Shown here one piece after another: positions 33,121 through 59,171 of a stretch of 64,000 nucleotides of DNA. The stretch is taken from assembly GCA_028711445.1 (NCBI GenBank), contig JAQTSD010000002.1, positions 27,044 to 91,043 of the forward strand, in the 5' to 3' direction. Numbering within the stretch: the stretch's first letter is position 1; each line of letters opens with the position of its first letter. The notes under the pieces are model-generated. The model did not search any database and was not told the DNA's origin. It was given only the letters and a program-made list of their open reading frames with translations. Both the position numbers and the translations under genes were made by a program. This DNA comes from Candidatus Peribacteraceae bacterium. GTDB lineage: Bacteria; Patescibacteriota; Gracilibacteria; Peribacterales; Peribacteraceae.

Positions 33121-33137
33121 TGCTACACTTACCTCGC

Positions 33138-34076
33138 ATGACTCTTTCTCAAACCATCCTCGGTGTCCGGTTTTCCAACCCCACCGTTCTTGCTTCGGGT
33201 ATCTGGGGGATCACGGCAGCGAGTTGGCGTGCGGCGGCGAGGGTCGGAGCAGGAGGAGTGACGACGAAATCCCTCTGGTTGAAGGAGCATCGCGGCCACG
33301 TCAGTCCGGTGATCATCGCCACGGACCATTGGACACTCAATGCCGTCGGAGTGCCGGATGCCGGCATCGAGAAGGCACGCGAGGAGATCGGGGACTACCA
33401 GAGAGATCCACCTGTTCCTCTGATTGCGAACATCATTGCCGACACGGTCGAAAATTACGGCAAGACCGCTTCGGCGATCGCGAAGCTCAAACCGGAATTT
33501 CTTGAGGTGAATATCAGCTGCCCGAATGTGGAGGATGAGTTGGGCAAGCCCTTCGCCTGTTCTGCGCACGCTGCCGCGGCTGTCACGAAAGCCGTGAAGG
33601 CTGTCAGCGGGAAGATCCCCGTCTTCATTAAGCTCTCGCCGAATGTCGACTCCATCGCCGCGATCGCACAGTCCTGCGCCGCCGCCGGCGCGGACGGCTT
33701 CACCGTCATCAATACCGTCGGGCCGGGCATGGCGATCGACTTGAAGAGCCGCATGCCCATCCTCACCAACCGTGTCGGCGGTCTCTCTGGTCCGGCCATC
33801 AAGCCGATCGCGGTCCGGTGCATTGCGGACGTCTACCGTGCGACGGACGGCGAGCTCCCGATCATCGGGACGGGAGGCGTGATGACCGGCGAAGACGCGC
33901 TGGAACTCATGCTTGCGGGTGCGAGTCTCATCGGTATCGGATCTGCCGTCGGCTATCGAGGTCACAAGGTTTTTTCACTTGTCTGTGCGGAGATGGAGAC
34001 ATGGTGTAAGCGGGAGGGGGTCAGGAAGATCGGGGAGATGGTGGGGGCATTGAAAGATGTACAACATAAGGCATGA
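33138..34076 (+). CDS. pyrD: dihydroorotate dehydrogenase B, catalytic subunit
   Basis: NPTVLASG...GGVTTKS...LNAVGVPDAG...EVNISCPN...FIKLSPN...INTVGPGMAIDL...GGLSGPAIKPIAVR...IIGTGGV. The start (33120 or 33138) is uncertain. Confidence 0.9.
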   Translation: MTLSQTILGVRFSNPTVLASGIWGITAASWRAAARVGAGGVTTKSLWLKEHRGHVSPVIIATDHWTLNAVGVPDAGIEKAREEIGDYQRDPPVPLIANIIADTVENYGKTASAIAKLKPEFLEVNISCPNVEDELGKPFACSAHAAAAVTKAVKAVSGKIPVFIKLSPNVDSIAAIAQSCAAAGADGFTVINTVGPGMAIDLKSRMPILTNRVGGLSGPAIKPIAVRCIADVYRATDGELPIIGTGGVMTGEDALELMLAGASLIGIGSAVGYRGHKVFSLVCAEMETWCKREGVRKIGEMVGALKDVQHKA

Positions 34077-34903
34077 GTACAACTATTCCATTACAGGCGC
34101 GGCTTCCGAAGACTTATAAAATCACTTCCATGAAGCGTGAGACGGAGCAGGTGACATCATGTACATTTGACGTATCGCTTGGATCGCGGCCCGGACAGTT
34201 TGTGATGCTGTGGCTTCCCGGGGTGGAGGAGATCCCCATGAGCGTGGCGAATGATGACGGAAAGCAACTCACAGTTACATTCTTCGCTGTCGGAGAGACT
34301 ACCAAGAAGCTGGCGGGGTTGAAGAAAGGTGATCTGGTCGGACTGCGCGGTCCCTTTGGGACATTCTACGAATGGAAACCTCGTCAGAAGCTCGCACTTG
34401 TCGCGGGTGGTTATGGTGCTGCTCCAATGTATTTCACGGCGAGAGAAGCGGCGAAAGATGGTTGTACACTTTTCATCTTCGTTGGTGCACGAAGTAAAGA
34501 GCATCTCCTCTACCTTTCGGCGTTTAAGAAATTGCCACGTACGACCTTGTATATTTCAACCGATGATGGCTCACAGGGGTTTAAAGGTTTCAATGTGCAA
34601 TTGCTGGAGAAGATGCTCAAAGAGGGCAAGCAAGCCCTTACAATCGACCAGATCTTCGCCTGCGGACCCGAACGGATGCTTAAGGCCGTCTCAGATCTCT
34701 CCTTCAGGAAAAAGATTCTCAGCCAACTCTCGTTGGAGCGTTACATGAAGTGCGGTTTCGGCCTGTGCGGCAACTGCGTCGTCGACCCGCTCGGTATCCG
34801 CCTCTGTATCGATGGACCAGTTGTGAAGAATGATCTTGCGCGCAAGATCACGGAATTCGGGAAGTATCATCGGGATGAACTGGGGAGAAAGAGAGTGTTG
34901 TAG
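34073..34903 (+). CDS. pyrK: dihydroorotate dehydrogenase electron transfer subunit
   Basis: FAD/NAD-binding fold (RPGQFVMLWLPG...EIPMSV; LVAGGYGAAPM). C-terminal 2Fe-2S ligands MKCGFGLCGNCVVD. ATGA overlap with pyrD. Confidence 0.9.
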   Translation: MSTTIPLQARLPKTYKITSMKRETEQVTSCTFDVSLGSRPGQFVMLWLPGVEEIPMSVANDDGKQLTVTFFAVGETTKKLAGLKKGDLVGLRGPFGTFYEWKPRQKLALVAGGYGAAPMYFTAREAAKDGCTLFIFVGARSKEHLLYLSAFKKLPRTTLYISTDDGSQGFKGFNVQLLEKMLKEGKQALTIDQIFACGPERMLKAVSDLSFRKKILSQLSLERYMKCGFGLCGNCVVDPLGIRLCIDGPVVKNDLARKITEFGKYHRDELGRKRVL

Positions 34904-34933
34904 ATCTTTCAATGGTCTCTTTCGAAAGAGGTA

Positions 34934-36073
34934 TCACGTGCGAATTTTTCGATCCAGAGCAAGAATGATCTCGATCACCTGCTCGACTCCTTTGAGATAC
35001 GTCTTCTTTTCCATCTTCTCTTCAAGCGAATGTGTAGCAAAGCCATTACTTGCGCCGAGTGTGACGGTTGGAATGCCGCGTGCAAGGGAAACATCACCGT
35101 CTGTATTGCCAATCTTGAAAAACGGTCTGATGCCGAGGGATCGTTGCACCTTCCTTGCGGTAGTGCAGAGGAGGTGATTCTTTGGCATACTTGCTGCTTT
35201 TGTCATGGAGAGCATCGTGAGTTTGAACGTCACGCCGCCTTTCTTGTGCGTGCGGAGCACTCTGTGAAAAAGTTGTACGAGAGCGTTGATATTCTTCTGC
35301 CTCTCCGCGCGGAATTCTAGAAGCATCTTCGCTTCGCCGGGAATGGCATTGATACTCTTCCCTCCCTGAATTGCTGTCACATTGTACGTCGTATCCTTCG
35401 GTCGAGTGATCTTCGACAGATCGTGGATGATGGAGGAAAGGATGACGACGGCATTCGGCTCGCCGAAGTTGCGCCAGCTGTGCGCCCCTTTCTGCTTGGC
35501 AATCACCGAGAAATCTGCGCGGTACTGTCCCACACACGCATTCGTCACACGTCCAATATCGTGGCTCTCGATATTTACCACATGAGAGATAATTTTTTCA
35601 TATTTTGTGATGATTCTCTTCATGCCCCGTTTGGCACCCAGCCCCTCTTCCCCGACCGTGAAGACAACGAGATAGTTCTGCTCGAGAGGAATCTTCACAT
35701 CTCGCACAAATTTCAGAAATGTCAGGAGTGCAGTCACTCCCGCAGCATTATCACAGATACCGTGAGCGTGCAGAAATGTCGCGTCCTCTCGTACTCTGAT
35801 GGGTGACGGAGTATCGCAAGCCGTGTCTGCATGAGCACAGAGGAGAATGAACTTCTTCTGCTTGGGATGTGTGATGAGAAAGCCGATTGCATTGCCTTCA
35901 GCGTCTCTATGTACGTTCTTTAAGCCGAAGGAAGAAAGGATCTTCATGAGGTATCGGGTCCTCCTCTCTTCATGAAAAGTGGGAGACGGTATCTGGCAGA
36001 TAGTTTTCAGAAGTCGAAAAACATCTCCCCGGGATTCCCGGAGGAATGCACGGGTGGATGGGACGATTGTCAT
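34934..36073 (-). CDS. M20 family metallopeptidase
   Basis: LCAHADTA (metal-binding His/Asp), ICDNAAGV, VFTVGEEGLGAKRG (catalytic Glu-Glu), and a C-terminal GNTDG...GIPTVTLG. Confidence 0.8.
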   Translation of the reverse strand: MTIVPSTRAFLRESRGDVFRLLKTICQIPSPTFHEERRTRYLMKILSSFGLKNVHRDAEGNAIGFLITHPKQKKFILLCAHADTACDTPSPIRVREDATFLHAHGICDNAAGVTALLTFLKFVRDVKIPLEQNYLVVFTVGEEGLGAKRGMKRIITKYEKIISHVVNIESHDIGRVTNACVGQYRADFSVIAKQKGAHSWRNFGEPNAVVILSSIIHDLSKITRPKDTTYNVTAIQGGKSINAIPGEAKMLLEFRAERQKNINALVQLFHRVLRTHKKGGVTFKLTMLSMTKAASMPKNHLLCTTARKVQRSLGIRPFFKIGNTDGDVSLARGIPTVTLGASNGFATHSLEEKMEKKTYLKGVEQVIEIILALDRKIRT

Positions 36074-36253
36074 CGGTGAAACTCTATGCGATGAGAAGAG
36101 AGATGGTCAAGGTAAGAACTGATCAAAGACGAAGTTCTCAGAAAGAAACCAGTGTTTTTTCGAGACAAATTAGGTTTGACATTCGGCATTGGTGGTATCA
36201 AGATGCCTCTTTCCCGGCGCACCACCATTATTATGTTATCTTTCCGAAGAAAG

Positions 36254-37132
36254 ATGGCTGGGCTAACGATTTCCGATCTCCTCAAGCGGAAAGGTCCTGT
36301 CGAGGTGATCGGTTGCCACAGCCCTCTTTCGGGGAAGATTGCCGAGTCTGTCGGGTTTCAGGCACTCTGGCTCAGTAGCCTGGAACTCTCCGCTCTCAAC
36401 GGGGTTCCGGATGCGAATTTTCTCACCATGTCCGAAAATTTGGATATGGTGCGCAACGTTTGCCAAGCAGTATCCATCCCTGTCATTGCGGATTGCGACA
36501 GCGGCTACGGGAACGAGTTGAATGTCTATCGTATGGTACAGCTCTACGAACAGGCGGGTGTGAGTGGGATATGTCTTGAAGATAACGTGTATCCCAAAAA
36601 ATGCAGCTTCTACGAAACGAGTGCGGATGAAGTAGTCACTCCTGAAGAGCATGCCAGACGTATCGCTGCGGCAGTGCAAGCTCGTCACAATGGCCTCTTC
36701 ATCATTGCAAGAACCGAGGCGTTCATTCGTAACCTTGGTCTCAAGGAGGCATTGCATCGCGCATCCGTGTATGAGAAGGCGGGGGCCGACGCAATCTTGG
36801 TACACTCCAAGAAGAAAACAGACGAAGATCTCGTTGAGTTCGTAAAGGCTTGGAATGGCAAGGTTCCTCTTGTTTGCGTGCCGACGACCTATAATCAGTA
36901 TTCCTCCTCCGAGCTCTTCGAGCGCGGCTACAAGATCATCATTTTCGCCAATCATGGTCTCCGCGCCAGCATTAATGCGATGAAAGAGGCATTTGCGCTT
37001 ATAAAGGAGAAGCATCGTACCAAAGATCTCGACGATCAGATCGCATCACTACAAGATGTCTTCGAACTCACAGATGTCGACGCAATGCAGCAACTCATTG
37101 CATCTTTCAACCGCTCTCATGACGTACGCTGA
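36254..37132 (+). CDS. PEP mutase / isocitrate lyase superfamily enzyme, PEP-mutase-like with non-canonical active-site motif
   Basis: Collinear with PEP mutase as I recall it: GFQALWLSSLELSA..GVPDAN, DCDSGYGN, ILVHSKKKTDEDLVEFVKAW, FANHGLRAS. The signature reads EDNVYPKKCS instead of EDKxxxxxNS. Confidence 0.75.
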   Translation: MAGLTISDLLKRKGPVEVIGCHSPLSGKIAESVGFQALWLSSLELSALNGVPDANFLTMSENLDMVRNVCQAVSIPVIADCDSGYGNELNVYRMVQLYEQAGVSGICLEDNVYPKKCSFYETSADEVVTPEEHARRIAAAVQARHNGLFIIARTEAFIRNLGLKEALHRASVYEKAGADAILVHSKKKTDEDLVEFVKAWNGKVPLVCVPTTYNQYSSSELFERGYKIIIFANHGLRASINAMKEAFALIKEKHRTKDLDDQIASLQDVFELTDVDAMQQLIASFNRSHDVR

Positions 37133-37508
37133 ATGTAAATCTCAGGGTTTTGATTTTATCGTCGGCGTTCCCTGTTCATCGCTCAAGCAGTTCATCGAGG
37201 ATCTGCAGAGAGACGAACCCGGGCGATACATCCCTGTTCAACGTGAAGACACGGCGGTCGCTCTCGCAGTCGGCGCTTTCTTTGCTGGCAAGAAACCCCT
37301 CGTATTCCTCCAAAACAGCGGTCTCGGACATATCGTGAACATCGTTTCCTCCCTTTTGATTCCCTACGAGATTCCCATCCACTTTCTCGTCACCATGCGC
37401 GAGATGCCTTTCGAACATACGCACATGTACAAGATCACGAAGCCACTTCTCTCCCTTCTTGGCATTGAATCTCGCACGTTTCTCTTCGATGCCAGCTCCC
37501 ATGTTTGA
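37119..37508 (+). CDS. TPP-dependent 2-oxoacid (phosphonopyruvate/sulfopyruvate-type) decarboxylase, alpha subunit
   Basis: FDFIVGVPCSSLKQFI...PVQREDTAVALAVGAFFAGKKPLVFLQNSGLG is a ComD/Ppd N-terminal (PYR) domain pattern. Overlaps the stop of the mutase-like gene. Confidence 0.75.
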   Translation: MTYAECKSQGFDFIVGVPCSSLKQFIEDLQRDEPGRYIPVQREDTAVALAVGAFFAGKKPLVFLQNSGLGHIVNIVSSLLIPYEIPIHFLVTMREMPFEHTHMYKITKPLLSLLGIESRTFLFDASSHV

Positions 37509-37974
37509 AATGACGCGATTGCAGGCAGTTCGTTCGGTGCTCGATACACTGACTGATGAGCTGCTTATTGTCACAACCGGCTTTCTCTCACGCGATGTCT
37601 TTCATCTGCGGGATCGCAAAGAAAATTTTTACATGTGCGGTTCCATGGGGAATGCGTATCCCATCGGTATGGGGATTGCACTGGGCAGTCCGGAGCGGAC
37701 CATTACAGTCCTTTCCGGCGATGGAGCGGCACTCATGAGTCTTGGAAGTTTGGTGCTCGGAAACAGTCTCAAGTTGCCAAATCTGTGGCATATCATCATT
37801 GATAACAAGAAGTATGCTTCGACGGGGGGACAGCCGACGTGCAGTGATGGCATCGACTTTACACAGTTCCACAATACGCGGGTCATTCATGTGGATCATG
37901 ATGAGCCTGCATCCCCCCGCATCACACTTGATCCTGTCGAGATTGCTCGCCGGTTCCGTTTCTGCATCCGATGA
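37501..37974 (+). CDS. TPP-dependent 2-oxoacid decarboxylase, beta subunit
   Basis: GSMGNAYPIGMGIAL...VLSGDGAALMSLGSLV...IIIDNKKYASTGGQ is the TPP-binding GDG-x(24-27)-N motif (ComE/Ppd C-terminal half). ATGTTTGA overlap with the alpha subunit. Confidence 0.8.
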   Translation: MFEMTRLQAVRSVLDTLTDELLIVTTGFLSRDVFHLRDRKENFYMCGSMGNAYPIGMGIALGSPERTITVLSGDGAALMSLGSLVLGNSLKLPNLWHIIIDNKKYASTGGQPTCSDGIDFTQFHNTRVIHVDHDEPASPRITLDPVEIARRFRFCIR

Positions 37975-39392
37975 CCAGGGGAACACTCATCAGTGGCAAG
38001 TGGACGGTCTCGTTGCGGGCACGCGAAGTCATGAACCCGTTTTCGGGGGAGAAAGTGGGGGAAGTACCCTTACTTGAGCGAGAGCAAGTCATCCATGCCA
38101 TCGAAGATGCGGCTACATTCCACTCGTCGCTTACTCCATATGAGCGCTTCGTGATTCTGCGGAATGCGGCGAATATGGTTATGGAGAGAAAAGATGAAAT
38201 CGCGTGCCTCATTTCTTCGGAATCAGGACTGGCGTTGAAAGATACACGACATGAGGTGGAGAGAACGCATAATGTATTACTTCTGAGTGCCGAAGAAGCC
38301 AAGCGACAGCGGGGAAGTGTGTATCAATCGGATGTTGTTCCCCAGACGACCGGACGGGTGGCATTCACCATCCGGGAACCTGCGGGTCTGATTCTTGCAA
38401 TCACGCCGTTCAATCATCCCATGAATCAAGTGGCACATAAGATCGGGCCGGCGATTGCAATGAACAATACTGTTCTATTGAAGCCGTCGCTGAAGACGCC
38501 ACTCTCTGCCATCCGTCTTACAGAGATTCTCCTCGAAGCGGGTCTTCCACCGCGTATGCTGTCTGTTCTGACGCTCGACGTGATGGAACATGCACGCTTT
38601 CTTCTCTCACATCCTGCGATCGACATGGTGTGTTTTACCGGTAGTACGGAAAGCGGAGAGAAAGTACTCAAGGAAACCGGTGTGAAGAAAACTCTTATGG
38701 AACTGGGAGGTAATGACGTATGTATTCTCTGTGAAGATGCAGATGTTTCATCTCTCATCGATATGATCCTCATTGGTGGTCTGGGCAATTCCGGTCAACG
38801 GTGTACGTCGATCAAGAGACTGCTCTGCCACCGTTCCATCGCCGATGTTGTTGCGACTTCTTTGGGAGAAGCCGTCTCCCGTTTATGTGCCGGCGATCCC
38901 TTGCGGGAGGACACGGACATCGGGACGGTGATCGACGAAGAGGCGGCGATGACGATTGAACGCCGCATCCAGCAAGCATGCGCCATGGGGGCGAAGCTCC
39001 TCATAGGAGGGAGAAGAAAAGGTGCGCTCATCGAACCGACTCTGGTGGATTACATTCGGCCCGATATGGAATTGGTGCAGAAGGAGACGTTTGGGCCCGT
39101 TATCCCTCTCATCCGTTTCGATTCCGATGACGAGGCAATCAGGATGTGCAACGACACTCCTTTCGGATTGCAATCGGGCGTATGTACGAATGATCTTCGC
39201 AGAGCGATGCGTTATGTGCAGGGCATCCGCGCCGGCGCGGTCCATGTCAATCAGGCCCCGGGCTATCGTGTCGAATCCTGGCCGTTTGGCGGGATCAAGA
39301 AGAGCGGGTTTGGAAAAGAAGGTGTCGAACGAGCGTGTCTTGAAATGAGTACGGAGAAGCTTATATCCCTTCCTTTTCCTCCTTTTGCATGA
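37971..39392 (+). CDS. NAD(P)-dependent aldehyde dehydrogenase
   Basis: ITPFNHP, FTGSTESG, and MELGGND (catalytic Glu). GNSGQRCTS contains the catalytic Cys. EETFGPV. ATGA overlap with the upstream gene. Confidence 0.9.
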   Translation: MTRGTLISGKWTVSLRAREVMNPFSGEKVGEVPLLEREQVIHAIEDAATFHSSLTPYERFVILRNAANMVMERKDEIACLISSESGLALKDTRHEVERTHNVLLLSAEEAKRQRGSVYQSDVVPQTTGRVAFTIREPAGLILAITPFNHPMNQVAHKIGPAIAMNNTVLLKPSLKTPLSAIRLTEILLEAGLPPRMLSVLTLDVMEHARFLLSHPAIDMVCFTGSTESGEKVLKETGVKKTLMELGGNDVCILCEDADVSSLIDMILIGGLGNSGQRCTSIKRLLCHRSIADVVATSLGEAVSRLCAGDPLREDTDIGTVIDEEAAMTIERRIQQACAMGAKLLIGGRRKGALIEPTLVDYIRPDMELVQKETFGPVIPLIRFDSDDEAIRMCNDTPFGLQSGVCTNDLRRAMRYVQGIRAGAVHVNQAPGYRVESWPFGGIKKSGFGKEGVERACLEMSTEKLISLPFPPFA

Positions 39393-40714
39393 AGACCGTT
39401 CAGGAAATCATTAGGGCTGGGCGAGATGTGGAGGACCGCCTCGGTTGCGCACTCTTTCCAGATCTGCGTCTCGAGGATCTCGGTTGCCTTTCCATCGAGG
39501 ATTTACGACGTTGCTACCACAGAGAGATCGAGAGCATCATTACTCTTCACGGTTTGCTTCAATCGGGGATGGCACCGGCAGATCTTTCTTCCGTTGTGCA
39601 AACGATCAGCATCCACGGGAGGGAGCGCCCCGGAAGCCGGAGGGAAATCCTGGGTTTTCCCGTGAAAGCGATTGGTTCGAACATTCGCAGACAGGATATC
39701 GATTGGAATCAATTCACTTGTGAGCAATCCGGCGTGTGCCGCGAAGGGGATATCGTTATCGCCCGCGCTCTCTCGAGCAGGGGATCGATCAATCAACTGG
39801 AAGATCAAGCCGGCCGTGAAGTGCGGATCTTCGAAGGAGATCACTTCATGACGGTAATGGGGAATCGCCACTCCGGGACATCCGAGTATGGAGAACTGAC
39901 GGATGGGCAAATGGAGTTGCAGCCAGATACCGAAGTGGATCTTCTCTGCCATGGAGGTATTCTTGGTCATGGCATATGTATTCCGCGCAGCAGAGCAGTG
40001 CAGACCTTCTTCAAGGTGCACGTGGCTGCAATTCTCAGAAATGGCGGCCGCAATCTCAATCTTCTGGATCTGTATCCGGCGTGGGATAAGGAGATGCTGC
40101 CGTCCGCACCTATCATCTTCAACTGCGGCACATCGGCTGAGATCGGAAAGACGACATCTTCCTCCTCGATTATCCGAGCGCTGAAAAGAATGGGGAAGCG
40201 TGTCGGAGCGGCGAAGCTGGCCGGGACCGGCCGATATCGCGATTTACTTTCGATGCGCGATGCCGGTGCCGACTTGTACTTCGACTTCCCGGATGTGGGA
40301 TTGCCGTCAACATACACAAGTCCGTCCCGGTCATACCCGGCTGCTGTTACGCTTCTCAATAAGTTGAATCGTGGGAAGGTCGACGTGGTCGTTGCCGAAA
40401 TGGGGGGCGATATCATCGAGGCAAACATTCCTTCCGTTCTTCAGTCTCCGGAAATGATGCGTTATGCGAATGGCATCGTGCATTCATCCGCCGATATTCT
40501 TGGCATTCTCGGCTCATTGCAGCGGTATCGCGACTTTGGGGTGCAAGTGCCTGTCATGCTCACACTTCCGAAAGACCGCAACGATGCAGGAACGCGGGAG
40601 CGGCTTCAACAAGAGCATCTTTCGGCCTTCGATGTCATGAATATGCGGGAGTGCGATCAGGTGGTGGGAGCCCTCCTTCGCTGCCGCGAGGGGGAATCGA
40701 TATTTCCTGTATAA
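39389..40714 (+). CDS. hypothetical protein with C-terminal P-loop-like domain (GTSAEIGKTT)
   Basis: 441 aa. Walker-A-like NCGTSAEIGKTTSS, followed by VVVAEMGGD. This resembles the dethiobiotin-synthase/DUF1611-type nucleotide-binding fold. Family not recognised with certainty. Confidence 0.55.
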   Translation: MKTVQEIIRAGRDVEDRLGCALFPDLRLEDLGCLSIEDLRRCYHREIESIITLHGLLQSGMAPADLSSVVQTISIHGRERPGSRREILGFPVKAIGSNIRRQDIDWNQFTCEQSGVCREGDIVIARALSSRGSINQLEDQAGREVRIFEGDHFMTVMGNRHSGTSEYGELTDGQMELQPDTEVDLLCHGGILGHGICIPRSRAVQTFFKVHVAAILRNGGRNLNLLDLYPAWDKEMLPSAPIIFNCGTSAEIGKTTSSSSIIRALKRMGKRVGAAKLAGTGRYRDLLSMRDAGADLYFDFPDVGLPSTYTSPSRSYPAAVTLLNKLNRGKVDVVVAEMGGDIIEANIPSVLQSPEMMRYANGIVHSSADILGILGSLQRYRDFGVQVPVMLTLPKDRNDAGTRERLQQEHLSAFDVMNMRECDQVVGALLRCREGESIFPV

Positions 40715-40745
40715 TGCCGTACTTCTTCTTTCCCACTTTTGCACC

Positions 40746-41768
40746 ATGGAATTGAGAGGTTCTGACATTCTCACAATGGATCAGTTCGATCGGGAAGATC
40801 TCCGTCGTATTTTCGATACGGCTGCAGAGATGGAGGTGTATGCATCGAGACAAAAAATGACACGCGTTCTCGAGGGGGCAGTCTTGGCGAATCTGTTCTT
40901 CAGTTCGAGCACGCGTTCGCGCATCAGTTTTGGCTCAGCATTCAATCGTCTCGGTGGAGCAGTACGCGATACGACGAGCATTGACGAGTCGTCCATTGCC
41001 AAAGGGGAATCTCTCGAAGCGACTGCCCGTGTAGTCAGTGGTTACTCTGATGCGATTGTTCTGCGTTACCCGGAGGAAGATGCAGCCAAAATGGTTGCCG
41101 ATGCATCACCGCTGCCCGTGATCAACGGAGGAGACGGATCCAACGAGCACCCCACACAAGGGCTCCTCGATATCTTCACTATCCTGAAGGAGCGCAAGAT
41201 GTCTCTTGACGATCTTGACGGTCTCGTCGTTGCCGTTGGAGGAGATCTGAAGTACGGGCGTGCTGCCCACTCGATTGTCAAAGGACTCTCCATTTTTCGT
41301 AACATTTGCTACAAACTCATTGCCACGGATGAACTGCAAATGCCTGACAAGATTGTGGAACTCCTTCGCAACAGGGGGCATCAGGTCTTGCAGACCAGCG
41401 ATCTTTCTGAGGGGATCAAAGATGTGGACATCGTTTACATGACACGCAATCAAGAGGACAGGATGCCTCGTGAACTCGCTACGCACTTGCGCGGGAAGAT
41501 CTTCCTCGATCGTCGCACTTATGAGCGCTACGCCCGTCCCGATACCACGATCATGCACCCCCTCCCGATTGACATTCGGCCGGGTGCACAGGAAATCAAG
41601 CCTGATCTCTACGATCACCCGAACTTCGCGGTCTATCGTCAAACGGATAACGGTATGCCGGTGCGGATGTCGATTTATGTACATCTCCTCGGGGTCGTTG
41701 ACAGAGTACATGACACGGTCAGAGATGCGTTTTGGTTCCGACCGGATCGTACGGATTCCCATAGATGA
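40746..41768 (+). CDS. pyrB: aspartate carbamoyltransferase catalytic chain family protein
   Basis: LANLFFSSSTRSRISF (STRTR variant), AIVLRYP, NGGDGSNEHPTQ, GDLKYGRAAHS, YMTRNQEDR, HPLP...YRQTDNGMPVRMSI. Confidence 0.8.
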   Translation: MELRGSDILTMDQFDREDLRRIFDTAAEMEVYASRQKMTRVLEGAVLANLFFSSSTRSRISFGSAFNRLGGAVRDTTSIDESSIAKGESLEATARVVSGYSDAIVLRYPEEDAAKMVADASPLPVINGGDGSNEHPTQGLLDIFTILKERKMSLDDLDGLVVAVGGDLKYGRAAHSIVKGLSIFRNICYKLIATDELQMPDKIVELLRNRGHQVLQTSDLSEGIKDVDIVYMTRNQEDRMPRELATHLRGKIFLDRRTYERYARPDTTIMHPLPIDIRPGAQEIKPDLYDHPNFAVYRQTDNGMPVRMSIYVHLLGVVDRVHDTVRDAFWFRPDRTDSHR

Positions 41769-42232
41769 TTATGCATTTTGATGTTCCCGGTGTCGGCCCA
41801 ATAGATATTGATACGATTCTTCTCGATCTGAATGGGACGCTTCGTGATAAAAAAAAGTTTTTGGTGCCGGGTGTGAACACGCGCATAGCAAGGTTGCGGG
41901 AACTGGTACGTCTCATCCTTCTCTCAGGCGATACGCGGGGGGATGCAGCCGTTCTGGCAGAAGAACTTGGCATCGAATTTATCCGTACTCCGACGGCAGC
42001 AGATAAAGGTGCGATTGTTGATCGGCTTGGGGCAGAACATTGTGCCGGGATTGGGAACGGTCTCATCGATCTTACTATGGTTGAAAGGGCTCGTATTGGT
42101 ATTGCCGTTCTCCAAGGCGAGGGGGCTCACATGAAAACATTGCATGCTGCCGATATCGTCGTGACCAGTGTGAACGACGCACTCGATTTTTTTCTCGATG
42201 AGAAGAGCTTGATCGCCACTTTACGGGCATAG
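41765..42232 (+). CDS. HAD-superfamily hydrolase, soluble P-type-ATPase-like (COG4087-type)
   Basis: ILLDLNGTL (DxxGT variant), LLSGDTRG, AGIGNGLID...GIAVL. 155 aa. ATGA overlap with the ATCase stop. Confidence 0.7.
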   Translation: MIMHFDVPGVGPIDIDTILLDLNGTLRDKKKFLVPGVNTRIARLRELVRLILLSGDTRGDAAVLAEELGIEFIRTPTAADKGAIVDRLGAEHCAGIGNGLIDLTMVERARIGIAVLQGEGAHMKTLHAADIVVTSVNDALDFFLDEKSLIATLRA

Positions 42233-42281
42233 GGGCATTTGCATGCAGGAAAACGATGCAATATGAGTTGGCACTCTTCTC

Positions 42282-42310
42282 TTGCGAGTGCTAAATCGGT
42301 GTGCTAGACT
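42282..42310 (+). promoter_or_regulatory. mini-gene promoter, copy 1 (-35 TTGCGA, 17 bp, -10 TAGACT)
   Basis: TTGCGA at 42282-42287 and TAGACT at 42305-42310. Copy 2 has identical hexamers and identical spacing. Confidence 0.6.
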
Positions 42311-42342
42311 GCGGATCCTTCATTTCTTTCCCCCTCTTTCCC

Positions 42343-42393
42343 ATGACCGGTGGCGGTAAAGGCGGGTGTGGCGGCTGCTGTGGCTGCTGCTAA
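42343..42393 (+). CDS. 16-aa Gly/Cys-only peptide MTGGGKGGCGGCCGCC (mini-gene copy 1)
   Basis: My own translation; the ORF is below the track cutoff. ATG, reading frame, stop and the C-terminal CCGCC are conserved in the second copy at 46204..46260. It has its own promoter and terminator. Confidence 0.55.
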   Translation: MTGGGKGGCGGCCGCC

Positions 42394-42430
42394 CCCCTTC
42401 GGGGCGAGTGTCGCCCACATGAAATCCTCA

Positions 42431-42451
42431 GGCGGCCGCAAGCCGCCTTTT
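42431..42451 (+). terminator. rho-independent terminator of mini-gene copy 1
   Basis: GGCGGC-CGCAA-GCCGCC followed by TTTT. Confidence 0.75.
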
Positions 42452-42602
42452 CATGTATTCGATGTTTTTGAATTTCACCATCAATTGCATAATATTCCAT
42501 TCGGAAGTGGGAGGATTCTCTTCCTATGCGTTTAACCTTCATTGAAATTCCAGTCGGAGAATCCTTGCGATTCTTCGGTGTCTGCTATGCTGCAGGTGCG
42601 TT

Positions 42603-44933
42603 ATGAATTCTCCCCCGTCTCCTTCCGATGCAGTATCCGGCACCACTGCAGAGCACGTTTATGCCACAGCACGGAAACTTCTCGGGGAGGATCGTTTATT
42701 CGTGATCGTTTCCAATCGCGAACCCTACGAACATGTATCCAAAGGGGGACGCACTGTCGCCCAGCGCACCGTGGGAGGTGTAGTGAGCGCTTTGGATCCG
42801 CTCATGGAACGTTTGGGTGGAACATGGATTGCCTGGGGGAGCGGCGCAGCTGATCGCAGTATGGTCGATACCACGGACGGCGTGTTGCTTCCTCCGGGGA
42901 AGGAGACATATAGGCTCCGGCGGATATGGATGAGCGAAGAGGAAGTGGAACACTTCTATCGCGGTCACGTAAATCAGACATTGTGGCCTCTGTGTCACTC
43001 CGAAACAGAGAAAGTGCGCTTCCGCCGGCAAGAATGGGATGTATATCAGACCATCAATCGCCGGTTCGCAGAGGCTGCTGCGGAAGAATTGAAAGAGAAG
43101 AAAGGTGTAGTTTGGTTTCATGATTACCAGTTTGCCACTGCACCGGGAATGCTGCGGGATCTCCTCCCGGAAGTTACTATTCTTCAGTTCTGGCACATTC
43201 CCTGGCCTCCGTGGGAGATCTTCCGACGCCACCCGCAGCGTCGAGCTCTTCTCGAGGGGCTCCTCGGTTGCGATCTCATCGGTATGCATATCGATCAGTA
43301 TTGTGACAACTTCCTGCAGTGTGTCGAACGCGAATTACATTTGCCCGTAGATTGGGAGAAGGGGCATGTCCTCGTCGGGAACCGGATGGTGCGGATTCGG
43401 GCGCTGCCGATCAGTATCGACGCGCAGCATTGGGCGGATCTCGCCGCATCGGTTCCTGTGCAGCGCGCACTGGAAAAATATCGTACTCTCTATGCGCCTG
43501 CGGGTCGGGCAATTGGTATCGGCGTGGAACGAGCCGACTACACGAAGGGGATTCTATTGCGTTTGCATGCGCTTGAGTTGCTCTTCGAACAATACCCGCA
43601 GTGGCGGGGGACCTTCACCTTTCTGCAGGTCACTCCATCCTCTCGCAGTGCCATCCGCGCCTATGCGCTCTTTCAGCAGGAGATGATCCGTGTTGTCCGC
43701 GCGATCAACGCGCGCTATCAGACGGACACGTGGAAACCTATCGTGCACATTCGCACTGCCATTCCGGAGAAAGACCTCGCCGCTCTGTACCGTCTCGCGT
43801 CGATTGGCGTCGTGAGCGTACGGCAGGACGGCATGAATCTCGTTGCCAAGGAGTTCGTCGCTTGCCGTACCCACGAGGATGGCGCCCTCGTCTTGAGCGA
43901 ATTTGCGGGGGTCTCGGAGGAGCTTCATGAGGCCATTGCTATCAATCCGTATGATGTAGAAGGATTTGCGTATGCGCTGCATCAGGGTCTCAGTATGCCT
44001 GTTGCGGAACAACATACCCACATGCAGCGTCTACGCGAGCATCTCTTCAGTCATACCATCTACGATTGGGTGCAGGATCTCCTCGAAGAAGTCGCGGCAG
44101 TACAACAGGCGCAGGAAGGAGCCGGTTCCGCAGAGCCGCTGCTTGATCATCTCGATGATCTGCAGGAACGTATGGCGAAGCATCGGCATTTCGAGCTTTT
44201 CTGTGATTATGATGGTGTGCTGACATCCATTGCTCCACGTCCTCGTGAAGCGCGCTTAAATGAGCGCGTGCGTGATCTCCTCTGCAAGTTACGTGACAGC
44301 GCGTCCGTGCATGTGAGCATCATCAGCGGACGCATGCTTACGGATATAGTGGAACTGGTGTCCATTGAGCGTCTCACTTATGCGGGTAATCACGGACTGG
44401 AAATCAGCGGACCGCGCGTGAAGAGGATTCATCCGGATGTCGAACGTGTACACGGTGTACTCAAAACCCTCTATGACACATTACGTTCGACGATGCGCCC
44501 TTTCCCCGGTGTCCTTGTCGAGGACAAGGAGCTGGGTATCGCAGTGCACTTTCGTCTCGTGCCGACCGAACAAAGGCAGGACGTCGCAAATGTGTTCTAT
44601 GCGCAGGTGCAGCAAGCAGTCGACGAGGGATTACTGCGTGTGACGACAGGAAAGTTCGTCCTCGAGGTTCGGCCGAATGTCGCATGGGATAAGGGAACTG
44701 CTGCACTATGGCTCCTTGAGCAGCTTCATGGAAGCGACTGGCGTGGTCGCGTGCTGCCGTTCTATCTCGGGGATGATGAGACGGATGAAGATGCGTTCCT
44801 CGCGTTGCTTGGCAGCGGGGTGACGATTCGAGTGGGGGATCGGCGCACAGAGCCCACGGCTGCGCAGTATGTTGTGAGGGATACGGGAGACGTAACGGTG
44901 TTTCTCGAGTGGTTGGCGCAAACGGTACGGTAG
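42603..44933 (+). CDS. otsAB: bifunctional trehalose-6-phosphate synthase / trehalose-phosphatase (OtsA-OtsB fusion)
   Basis: GT20 region (VSNREPY...GGVVSAL...WFHDYQF...WHIPWP...GVERADYTKGI...RQDGMNLVAKEF) and a C-terminal HAD phosphatase (LFCDYDGVL...YLGDDETDEDAF). A TGc-TATGCT box is upstream. Confidence 0.88.
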   Translation: MNSPPSPSDAVSGTTAEHVYATARKLLGEDRLFVIVSNREPYEHVSKGGRTVAQRTVGGVVSALDPLMERLGGTWIAWGSGAADRSMVDTTDGVLLPPGKETYRLRRIWMSEEEVEHFYRGHVNQTLWPLCHSETEKVRFRRQEWDVYQTINRRFAEAAAEELKEKKGVVWFHDYQFATAPGMLRDLLPEVTILQFWHIPWPPWEIFRRHPQRRALLEGLLGCDLIGMHIDQYCDNFLQCVERELHLPVDWEKGHVLVGNRMVRIRALPISIDAQHWADLAASVPVQRALEKYRTLYAPAGRAIGIGVERADYTKGILLRLHALELLFEQYPQWRGTFTFLQVTPSSRSAIRAYALFQQEMIRVVRAINARYQTDTWKPIVHIRTAIPEKDLAALYRLASIGVVSVRQDGMNLVAKEFVACRTHEDGALVLSEFAGVSEELHEAIAINPYDVEGFAYALHQGLSMPVAEQHTHMQRLREHLFSHTIYDWVQDLLEEVAAVQQAQEGAGSAEPLLDHLDDLQERMAKHRHFELFCDYDGVLTSIAPRPREARLNERVRDLLCKLRDSASVHVSIISGRMLTDIVELVSIERLTYAGNHGLEISGPRVKRIHPDVERVHGVLKTLYDTLRSTMRPFPGVLVEDKELGIAVHFRLVPTEQRQDVANVFYAQVQQAVDEGLLRVTTGKFVLEVRPNVAWDKGTAALWLLEQLHGSDWRGRVLPFYLGDDETDEDAFLALLGSGVTIRVGDRRTEPTAAQYVVRDTGDVTVFLEWLAQTVR

Positions 44934-45117: not shown

Positions 45118-45669
45118 TTACAAAATATATGGAATAAACATTCTCACCTTCTTCTTGTATGCGGCATATGACTCCGGAAATATCGTAGCCAGCAAGGTCT
45201 CTTCCTTCCGTGCACGCAAGTACAGACCAATGAGGAGGGCGAAGAACAGGAGAAAACCCTCCAGATGGCGGTACCATAGGATGGTTCCAAATGTCAGACA
45301 GGAGAATCCCGTGTAAATGGGATGGCGAACGAAGCGGTACGGACCGGACCGGACAAGCTCGTGACGCTCTTTGAGCGTGAGATCCGCGCTCCAGTTGCGA
45401 CCGAGACTTGTTCGCGCCCAAATTTCAATACCCGTACCAAGAATGACAAATACCAAAGCCACGTCATCAAGTACAAACGAATCTGTCCATAGCAACAACC
45501 CCGTATATCCGAGACGGGCGAGAATAGTGTACGCGATGATGAGAAGATAAAGAAAAATTCTCTGCCATTTCCAGCTTTGTCTTACGAGAGTCCTCTTCGC
45601 TGAGAATGCGGCGAAGGAGGCGTCCAAGAACGGATGCACACTCAAAGTCTTCGTCGGTGCGCGGAGCAA
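45118..45669 (-). CDS. isoprenylcysteine carboxyl methyltransferase (ICMT/PEMT) family membrane protein
   Basis: LVRSGPYRFVRHPIYTGF...RKEETLLATIFPESYAAYKKKV is the characteristic ICMT-family C-terminal motif. The first ~26 codons are antisense to the pyrK fragment, so the true start is uncertain. Confidence 0.75.
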   Translation of the reverse strand: MLRAPTKTLSVHPFLDASFAAFSAKRTLVRQSWKWQRIFLYLLIIAYTILARLGYTGLLLWTDSFVLDDVALVFVILGTGIEIWARTSLGRNWSADLTLKERHELVRSGPYRFVRHPIYTGFSCLTFGTILWYRHLEGFLLFFALLIGLYLRARKEETLLATIFPESYAAYKKKVRMFIPYIL

Positions 45670-46072
45670 AGATCACCTCCTCTACCTCCCGGCATTCAAA
45701 AAATTACCGCGCACGACCCTGCACGTCTCGACCGATGACGGGTCGCAGGGATTCAAGGGTTTCAATGTGCAGCTGTTGGAGCGGTCACTCAAGGAGAAGA
45801 AATCGGCATTCGTCGATCAGATCTTCGCCTGCGGGCCGGAGCGGATGCTGAAAGCGGTCTCCGATCTCTCCTTCGAGATGAAGATCCCCAGCCAACTCTC
45901 TCTGGAACGGTACATGAAGTGCGGTTTCGGCCTGTGCGGCAACTGCGTGGTCGATCCGCTGGGTATCCGCCTCTGCACCGATGGGCCGGTGGTGCGTAAT
46001 GACATCGCGCGAAAGATCACGGAATTCGGGAAGTATTGTCGGGACGATCTTGGCCGAAAGCATTCATTTTAG
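45590..46072 (+). pseudogene. pyrK: 5'-truncated, diverged second copy of the pyrK 3' half
   Basis: My in-frame translation is ...LFAENAAKEASKNGCTLKVFVGARSKDHLLYLPAFKKLPRTTLHVSTDDGSQGFKGFNVQLLE...QIFACGPERMLKAVSDLSF...LSLERYMKCGFGLCGNCVVDPLGIRLC...ITEFGKY...*. It aligns with residues ~125-276 of the intact PyrK (34073..34903). No N-terminal FAD domain and no start context. Confidence 0.8.
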
Positions 46073-46128
46073 GGTTAGGATTAGGGGGATGCTTTCGTCT
46101 TATCCTAACCCTAACACCTAACCCTAAA
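46069..46128. repeat. hairpin made of TTAGGG/CCCTAA-like units
   Basis: TTAGGGTTAGGATTAGGGGG...ATCCTAACCCTAACACCTAACCCTAAA. GGGTTAGGAT (46072-46081) pairs perfectly with ATCCTAACCC (46102-46111). Confidence 0.4.
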
Positions 46129-46142
46129 CTGGCACTCCCCCC

Positions 46143-46171
46143 TTGCGAGTGCCAATTTCCCATGCTAGACT
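46143..46171 (+). promoter_or_regulatory. mini-gene promoter, copy 2 (-35 TTGCGA, 17 bp, -10 TAGACT)
   Basis: TTGCGA at 46143-46148 and TAGACT at 46166-46171. Confidence 0.6.
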
Positions 46172-46203
46172 CAAGGTCCTTCATTTCTTTCCCCGTTTCC
46201 CCT

Positions 46204-46260
46204 ATGACCGGTGGCGATAAAGGCGGCGGGTGTGGCGGCGGCTGCTGTGGCTGCTGCTAA
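46204..46260 (+). CDS. 18-aa Gly/Cys-only peptide MTGGDKGGGCGGGCCGCC (mini-gene copy 2)
   Basis: It differs from copy 1 by one substitution (GGT to GAT) and two 3-nt (GGC) insertions. The frame, the stop and the C-terminal CCGCC are preserved. Confidence 0.55.
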   Translation: MTGGDKGGGCGGGCCGCC

Positions 46261-46295
46261 ACCCCTCGAGCGGCTCTCGCTCGCATGATCTCGAA

Positions 46296-46316
46296 GGCGG
46301 CCCGTGGCCGCCTTTT
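46296..46316 (+). terminator. rho-independent terminator of mini-gene copy 2
   Basis: GGCGGCC-CGT-GGCCGCC followed by TTTT. Confidence 0.75.
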
Positions 46317-46383
46317 CATGACGGTTTCTTGTCCCTCCTCTTGCGCCACTGTTCCCGAAGAAGTTCTGAGGGGGGGCTATTGT

Positions 46384-58004: not shown

Positions 58005-59171
58005 TCACGCCCTCCTCTCCTCGTGCACGAACCCCAGCATCCCCGCGGCGATCACGGTGAGGACGAGCGAGAAGATGAAGGGTGCGGCGATGCCGACGCG
58101 GTCCCAGAGGATTCCCGCGATGAGCGAGGCCGGAAGAATGCACAGGCCGATGACCATCTGGAGGCCGCCCAAGGCGCTGGCGACGAAATCCTTGGGCGCG
58201 AGCTCCGCAGCGAACGCTTTCTGTACAGGCTCCAGCGCCGCCTTGTGCAGGCCGTAGAAGACGAAGGCGATGACAACGGCGCTCATGCCATTTGCGAAAG
58301 CGAGGAGTGCGAGCGTGGCCGCCCAGAAAGTGAGGGAGAGCAGGAGGACGGGCTTGCGGCTCTTGCGGTCGGCGAGCTTGCCGAAGAAAATCGAGAAGAG
58401 CGCTGCCGTGAGCGAAAAGAGCAGGTAGAGCACGGGGATCGCCCCCACGGAGAATCCCGCTTGTTTCGCAAAGAGCATGAGGAAGGAGTAGCTGAAGTTC
58501 CCAAGAGAGAAGATCGCGCTCAAGGAGATATAGAGCTTTAGATTGCGCGTGAGATCCGTGAGGCGGATGCCCTTGAAGATCTTTCCGGGCGTAGCCGTTT
58601 CCCGGATGAAAAGGAGCACGAGCAGAACGGCGAGGACGGAGGGGATAGCGGCGATGAGGAAAAGCGTGCGGTAACCGATGTGCCCGACGAGGAGGATGGA
58701 GAGAACGATCCCTACCACTGCGCCGGCATTGTCCATCATGCGCAGGATGCCGAAATTTCTCCCGCGGTTCTCGCGGGTGGAAATATCGGAGAGGATGGCG
58801 TCACGCGGGGAGCCGCGCATCTTGCCGCTGCGGTCGAGGAGGCGGAAGGGGATCACCCATTGCCAGGTGAGGGCGATGGCATAGCCGGCGTGCGCGATAC
58901 CGCCCAGGAGATAGCCCGTCCAGACGAAGATTTTGCGCTTGCGGATGCGGTCGGAGATATATCCGGAGACGGCTTGGGAGACGGAGACGATGGCATCTCC
59001 GAGACCGTCGATCAATCCGACAACCTGCATGTTTGCGCCGAGCACGCTCGTGAGGAAGAGCGGCCAGACGGAGAAGATCATGTCGGAGCCGGCATCGTGG
59101 AGGAAAGAGGCGATCGAGAAGACGCGAACGGTCTTCCTCGTCTCACGTTGATCGATGGAGTGGGGATCCAT
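58005..59171 (-). CDS. MFS transporter
   Basis: 12 predicted TM segments. The SDRIRKRK loop between TM2 and TM3 and LADRKSRKP in the second half are the MFS signature loops. Confidence 0.85.
   Translation of the reverse strand: MDPHSIDQRETRKTVRVFSIASFLHDAGSDMIFSVWPLFLTSVLGANMQVVGLIDGLGDAIVSVSQAVSGYISDRIRKRKIFVWTGYLLGGIAHAGYAIALTWQWVIPFRLLDRSGKMRGSPRDAILSDISTRENRGRNFGILRMMDNAGAVVGIVLSILLVGHIGYRTLFLIAAIPSVLAVLLVLLFIRETATPGKIFKGIRLTDLTRNLKLYISLSAIFSLGNFSYSFLMLFAKQAGFSVGAIPVLYLLFSLTAALFSIFFGKLADRKSRKPVLLLSLTFWAATLALLAFANGMSAVVIAFVFYGLHKAALEPVQKAFAAELAPKDFVASALGGLQMVIGLCILPASLIAGILWDRVGIAAPFIFSLVLTVIAAGMLGFVHEERRA

Follow-up and report, generated by a model that had tools for sequence, protein, structure and literature searches.

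The stretch of DNA analysed here, 64,000 nt from an ultra-small bacterium of the Candidatus Peribacteraceae (Peregrinibacteria, CPR; hereafter the window), carries an intact pyrK gene and, further along, the 3′ half of a second one. Read from the left, the genes are pyrG, pyrD, the intact pyrK (I), an eight-gene cassette, a first copy of a Gly/Cys mini-gene module (module A), a gene for a trehalose-6-phosphate synthase/phosphatase fusion (T6PS), an ICMT-family methyltransferase gene, the pyrK remnant (F), a hairpin, a second copy of the module (module B), an ORF of 562 aa, a tRNA-Glu gene and a restriction-modification/defence island (Table 1). The start of the intact pyrK overlaps the stop codon of pyrD. 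Its product shows the domains PF00970 (weak), PF00175 and PF10418, and this combination of FAD-binding, NAD-binding and C-terminal 2Fe-2S domains, together with the pyrD neighbour, identifies it as PyrK, the electron-transfer subunit of DHODH-B. The 562-aa ORF is an accessory gene with no Pfam match and a GC3 of 0.49, and within the family it has a counterpart only in G142, at 32% identity. An Rfam scan of 34-49 kb returned the tRNA-Glu gene as the only match.

Table 1. Features of the pyrK locus, in window coordinates.
Feature	Position	Strand	Basis or remark
pyrD	33129..34076	+	alignment with G001 stops at 34047
19-nt inverted repeat, left arm	34048..34066		starts where pyrD homology with G001 ends; encodes the atypical pyrD tail
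Intact pyrK (I), 276 aa	34073..34903	+	GC 0.51, GC3 0.59; divergent over its whole length
19-nt inverted repeat, right arm	34896..34914		last two codons and stop of intact pyrK
Eight-gene cassette	34934..42232	M20 peptidase -	M20 peptidase, PEP mutase, split phosphonopyruvate decarboxylase, aldehyde dehydrogenase, 441-aa ORF, OTCase-like gene, HAD
Gly/Cys mini-gene module, copy A (~190 bp)	42269..42455	+	93% identical to the module directly 3′ of G001 pyrK
T6PS	42603..44933	+	absent from G001; nearest family homolog 62% identical
ICMT-family methyltransferase gene, 5′-truncated	45118..45669	-	Pfam, homolog alignment
ICMT/pyrK joint	45604..45616		tgcggcgaa readable as part of either gene
pyrK remnant (F)	45608..46072	+	residues 122-276 and stop; alignment, Pfam
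TTAGGG-like hairpin	46069..46131		directly 3′ of the F stop codon; same kind after pyrK in G001 and L038
Gly/Cys mini-gene module, copy B	46130..46321	+	77-79% identical to copy A and to the G001 module

The remnant is an in-frame, stop-free counterpart of PyrK residues 122-276. An earlier note on this DNA, made by reading the sequence, had proposed such a relic of the pyrK 3′ half 10.7 kb downstream of the intact gene, and alignment confirmed it: F matches intact pyrK at 77.6% of nucleotides and 84.7% of amino acids (150 aligned codons), has the same orientation and lies about 11 kb away, 10,705 bp separating it from the stop codon of the intact gene. The proposed end at 46072 holds, but the start had to be moved from 45590 to ~45608 and the residues from ~125-276 to 122-276; the frame is open from about 45548-45551 to 46072, and in translation the alignment with PyrK holds only from 45608 onward. 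The identical islands of 38 bp and 21 bp described in that note are both present, each exactly twice in the window (none expected by chance), and F retains, as the note had also stated, the motif MKCGFGLCGNCVVD with all four cysteine ligands of the 2Fe-2S cluster. Pfam recognises in F the Fe-S domain PF10418 (DHODB_Fe-S_bind) and positions 19-108 of the NAD-binding domain PF00175, whose beginning is missing; F also has no FAD-binding domain, no GGxG nucleotide loop and no start codon. Judged by this domain content, F is a truncated member of PyrK and represents the non-functional 3′ half of another pyrK gene. Since it contains no stop or frameshift, and only one family-invariant site is altered (H to C), the truncation is recent relative to the divergence of I and F. 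F is the sole other pyrK match in the 1.25-Mb genome. In a survey of 200 genomes of the family, 136 of which carry pyrK, no other pyrK-bearing genome combined a full gene with an internal truncated copy; the second matches seen elsewhere were split alignments, contig ends or distant paralogs.

We compared the locus with G001, the only other genome of the genus compared, and with L038, a Logan contig. In G001, pyrD is followed by pyrK, the hairpin, the module and then an unrelated ORF of 650 aa, and in L038 pyrK is followed by the hairpin, the module and msrB, a gene absent from both this genome and G001. Because both loci have it, the order pyrK-hairpin-module is taken as the layout of the genus, with variable DNA after the module. 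The idea that relatives might carry pyrK directly followed by the mini-gene and the 562-aa ORF thus holds for G001 in part: the module does come next, after the hairpin, but the following ORF is the 650-aa one. We also tried these two ORFs as a synteny guide to the resident copy; they are unrelated to each other and give no argument. Overall, the gene 3′ of the module is T6PS for copy A, the 562-aa ORF for copy B, the 650-aa ORF in G001 (L028), and msrB in L038 (module at 925-1110), while upstream of the T6PS gene of G065 no mini-gene module was found. Module B carries a 6-nt in-frame insertion, and its hairpins have been maintained by compensatory changes, for example an A-T pair in place of G-C in the stem that follows the stop codon; this copy therefore diverged while it was still functional.

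G001 lacks PEP mutase, T6PS and the 562-aa ORF, and none of the genes of the interval between I and F was found there; the DNA between the two copies is thus accessory and has no counterpart in the congener. Synteny with G001 resumes only at an MFS gene at window position 58005, so that the stretch from pyrK to this gene, 34.9-58.0 kb of the window (~24 kb), stands against ~29 kb of unrelated genes in G001 (C3:258-287.5 kb). The tRNA-Glu gene is 100% identical to that of G001, but with respect to the MFS gene it points the opposite way in the two genomes. Between pyrG and pyrD the congener has a Vut_1 transporter gene that is absent from the window. The cassette occupies precisely the space from the I stop codon to module A. 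The same eight genes, M20 and phosphonate genes in the same order, are found in other Peregrinibacteria in unrelated contexts (L041 3628-10981 and a P0150 contig), with RelB/YafQ, a sigma factor, AlaRS, GIY-YIG and histidine kinases as neighbours. None of the contexts of the nearest M20 homologs adjoins pyrK; in G012 a pair of M20 and PEP-mutase genes lies 10 kb downstream of pyrK.

The two pyrK copies are xenologs. A nucleotide tree built on the pyrK 3′ half placed I, F, G001 and L038 in one genus-level clade (support 100/99), resolving the clade itself and leaving the order within it without strong support. The most distant pair in the clade is I and F themselves (76-78% nucleotide identity), and an AU test rejects them as sisters (p=0.018). 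Their synonymous divergence (dS 1.53, dN/dS 0.07) is 2.6 times the median between this genome and G001 (0.59, 21 syntenic genes). The AU test and the excess of dS together exclude a duplication within this genome, and since both copies belong to one genus-level clade, one of them is a xenolog from a congener; by these measures I and F evolved apart as functional genes, each in its own lineage within the genus. The phylogeny of the two 3′ halves that the earlier note had suggested therefore bears out its surmise that one of the two ends is foreign, the copies being of different evolutionary origin. Its description of F as a diverged duplicate stands in the sense of a second copy and fails in the sense of a duplicate arisen here. 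The note itself had named a tandem duplication of the pyrDK region as the case that would speak against its reading. Such a duplication, of pyrK alone or of pyrDK, after which one copy decayed and other DNA was inserted, would account for the shared orientation and for the 11 kb between the copies, but it runs against the AU test and the species-level dS, and the differences between I and F fall mainly at third codon positions (22/12/67 for the three positions) and are mostly synonymous, pointing to purifying selection on both copies. We regard it as extremely improbable, and the note is not refuted on that account.

The interpretation the note had put forward was a site-specific integrative element inserted in the pyrK 3′ end, carrying a replacement end, with a recombination core (att) in the 38-bp block. 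The layout of gene, accessory DNA and displaced 3′ end fits this reading, and is the one seen in integrase-mediated genomic islands, which insert at the 3′ ends of genes and tRNAs and regenerate them. However, a Pfam scan of the ten ORFs of 34.9-45.7 kb detected no recombinase, integrase or transposase domain, only metabolic genes, and no direct att repeats specific to both ends were found. Further, the 5′ half of I is as divergent from G001 as the 3′ half (dS 1.56 and 1.10, GC3 0.56 and 0.61, respectively), with no breakpoint at codon 122 in either measure, so that it is the whole gene that differs and not only its end. The 38-bp block is identical at 35 of 38 positions in G001 and at 36 of 38 in L038, neither of which has the insert, and for this reason it does not qualify as an att core; its identity is best explained by conservation of the Fe-S cluster-binding motif. 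Finally, the 5′ edge of F is a junction with the truncated ICMT gene and not a repeat boundary. In these respects the locus is unlike the integrase-mediated islands, and an integrative element is scarcely credible here.

The right joint of the interval damages two genes. ICMT homologs in the family align only from about residue 19 of the protein in the window, and they begin with a hydrophobic helix (mean hydropathy ~2.1), against a value of 0.25 for the first 18 residues here. These first ~18 codons, the TTG start and the Shine-Dalgarno-like site are the antisense of F: all the in-frame start candidates upstream of the conserved part (45669, 45645, 45639 and 45627) lie inside F, and the sequence GGAGG...AGGAGG in front of the TTG at 45669 is the conserved HLLYL codons of pyrK read in antisense. 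One and the same point cuts both genes, ICMT having lost its first helix and pyrK its codons 1-121. Two unrelated genes cut at one point are consistent with an illegitimate or deletion joint, possibly through microhomology, and not with site-specific recombination. The ICMT gene is accordingly either chimeric or dead, and both its ribosome-binding site and its start codon are now supplied by the antisense strand of pyrK. Its truncation undercuts ideas of an intact partner for the Cys-peptide mini-genes.

The genome is a MAG of 45 contigs (1.25 Mb) and its joints are known from the assembly alone, so it might be argued that contig C35, to which the window belongs, wrongly joins two co-occurring congeneric populations. 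This seems quite improbable: the flanks of the 45.6-kb joint share no sequence, leaving the assembler no repeat on which to jump, a join at the blocks shared between the pyrK genes would have produced one chimeric gene and not a second, truncated copy, and the estimated contamination is 0.46%.

On the left side, the last 10 codons of pyrD (ALKDVQHKA*) differ from the GGMH... tail of the family. Third-position mismatch against G001 climbs from 0.27 to 0.43, with the best change point at 33.92-34.05 kb (LLR 12.3), immediately after the 350 bp of pyrD that are most conserved (93-95% identical to G001). A homologous crossover in pyrD would fit this change point; it is not proof of one, because dS is heterogeneous among the genes compared with G001, ranging from 0.17 to 1.58 over the syntenic genes (1.17 in one neighbour and 1.58 in another). 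The GC content of the intact pyrK continues into the adjoining cassette (0.50-0.53), compared with 0.60 in pyrD and 0.57 in F, which speaks for I as the imported copy.

Which of the two copies is the resident one bears directly on how the arrangement arose, and we somewhat favour F as the remnant of the resident pyrK, with the intact gene as the import. Compared with G001, F has a dS of 0.57, close to those of pyrG (0.64) and pyrD (0.42) and to the median of 0.59, and its GC3 shift (-0.058) is close to the median shift of -0.066. For the intact copy dS is 1.26, and its GC3 shift, -0.21, exceeds the shifts of all 21 syntenic genes (range -0.184 to -0.007). F thus matches a resident ortholog in both measures and I is an outlier, which is what inclines us to F. 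The best nucleotide tree speaks differently, as it places F outside a group of I, G001 and L038 (support 89/93), and three amino-acid states (G/K, RDE/RDD and KR/KH) likewise unite I with G001 and L038 while F has the outgroup states. With F outside, its status as resident requires that the lineage of this genome be basal in the genus and that the long branch of I be an effect of its AT shift; tree and dS can be reconciled if this lineage is indeed basal and the donor lineage drifted towards AT. The modules also speak against F as the resident, since module A, on the side of I, is the one close to that of G001, with module B, on the side of F, only 79% identical to it. Codon usage, which we tried as a marker of foreignness, did not discriminate, I (36th percentile) and the island genes (10th-55th) being in the normal range of the genome, with F at the 89th-94th. 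Searches of 5.8 billion proteins and of the 200 family genomes yielded neither a donor nor an empty site; the nearest pyrK to either copy is 86-87% identical, and the nearest M20 gene 70%.

The placement of F in the tree and the modules are better accommodated by the mirror image, in which the intact pyrK is resident and the fragment imported. A piece of congener DNA would have begun by chance inside pyrK and extended over the hairpin and module B as far as the 562-aa ORF, which it included, with an anchor on the right, for example in the invariant tRNA-Glu gene, and an illegitimate joint on the left inside the resident ICMT gene. The tree with its three amino-acid synapomorphies agrees with this, as does the position of module B as the outlier among the modules; the 562-aa ORF that adjoins F is accessory and low in GC3, and the M20 cassette is independently mobile, so that its adjacency to I need not mean that they arrived together. 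But the mirror image leaves it unexplained that F, and not I, fits the syntenic background in dS and GC3 shift, and that synonymous divergence shifts at the pyrD/pyrK boundary, where the pyrD tail has been rewritten; it also needs two separate events in this lineage. We consider it possible, though unlikely.

If F is the remnant of the resident gene, the history could be the following. The donor would have been another species of the same Peribacteraceae genus, and the incoming DNA a linear chromosomal piece of ~11.6 kb (roughly 34.0-45.6 kb of the window) carrying a complete pyrK, the M20/phosphonate cassette, a Gly/Cys mini-gene module, the trehalose-phosphate synthase gene and part of an ICMT gene. 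Its left end would have recombined through the highly conserved pyrD, and its right end would have been attached at codon 122 of the resident pyrK by an illegitimate joint. In this single event the first 121 codons of the resident gene would have been removed, and its 3′ half, hairpin and mini-gene module left downstream. The replacement would then be an in-situ xenologous displacement by homology-facilitated illegitimate recombination, with no site-specific recombinase involved, and the DNA may have been taken up by transformation; the genome encodes ComEC and DprA, which would permit transformation and do not demonstrate it. Most laboratory imports by homology-facilitated illegitimate recombination are smaller than ~11.6 kb.

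The intact pyrK is also bracketed exactly by a 19-nt inverted repeat, the arms of which are complementary at 18 of 19 positions. No further copy of either arm was found in the genome (with up to 3 mismatches) or in the comparison loci, and we rejected the arms as ends of a repeated element for this lack of recurrence. A perfect 14-nt palindrome, CTCTTTCGAAAGAG, lies at 34915-34933, between the convergent intact pyrK and M20 genes, and its half-sites resemble the outer parts of the arms. In the congener, the gap between pyrD and pyrK holds a gene of PF05635 (23S rRNA IVS-protein family, four-helix bundle) that is absent from the window; in G001 this gene stands between the two 29-nt arms of an inverted repeat built from heptamer-like units (congener loci L029 939-967 / 1375-1403 and L039 9410-9763). 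About 20 loci of the genome have 19-nt inverted-repeat pairs (at most 1 mismatch, 60-2000 nt apart), each with a sequence of its own, on contigs C1, C9, C11, C23, C28, C29, C31 and C44 (L049-L057), and the genes at these pairs are mixed; among them are ychF, dnaN, deoC, an IVP gene, an HD-domain gene and genes for a histidine kinase and a large serine recombinase. The repeat around pyrK could delimit a cassette, reflect gene capture in the loop of a hairpin, or have to do with RNA or with inversion. If the second of these applied, intergenic hairpins would capture or exchange whole genes in their loops without a recombinase, the intact pyrK would be a discrete unit of 867 bp (34048-34914), and F would be the resident copy made redundant by it. 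We hold this to be improbable; if true, hairpin capture in these CPR genomes would reach even housekeeping genes.

The displacement by homology-facilitated illegitimate recombination that we favour has parallels in known systems. In natural transformation (de Vries & Wackernagel 2002, PMC122324; Prudhomme et al. 2002, PMC122325; both as cited in PMC5361080), one conserved flank, which here would be pyrD, anchors the incoming DNA, and the other end joins without homology, cutting genes and deleting resident DNA with no recombinase. The difference is that here we infer the process only from its end product, in an uncultivated CPR genome, with the anchoring crossover located statistically. The same route has been proposed for displaced 3′ ends in Vibrio T6SS and in rhs loci (PMC5361080). 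In the T6SS effector-immunity arrays of Vibrio cholerae (PMC5361080) and in rhs C-terminal displacement (Jackson et al. 2009, PMC2935791, cited there), an incoming module replaces the resident gene, whose former 3′ end persists as a remnant further downstream, as may have happened to pyrK. The incoming module of those arrays has a conserved upstream part, and the loci encode polymorphic toxins under diversifying selection (PMC5361080), whereas the gene displaced here encodes a housekeeping electron-transfer subunit. The displacement of pyrK was probably a by-product of the acquisition of accessory genes.

Genes inside conserved operons are reported to undergo xenologous displacement in situ (Omelchenko et al. 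2003, Genome Biology), and the locus resembles this in that a foreign ortholog would occupy the same position in the conserved operon pyrG-pyrD-pyrK. It differs in that the donor would be a congener (~85% amino-acid identity) and not a distant lineage, and in that a remnant of the displaced gene is still visible.

As a footprint of gene replacement between close relatives the locus is clear, though ordinary, and it leaves known principles unchanged. It shows, in a natural and well-resolved case, how sister species of CPR bacteria recombine without mobile-element machinery; a block of accessory genes (the phosphonate cluster and trehalose synthesis) was probably delivered here and a core pyrimidine gene replaced in passing. 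Downstream of pyrK lies a plasticity zone, and the remnant, still free of stops, serves as a dated marker for how recently the block arrived.
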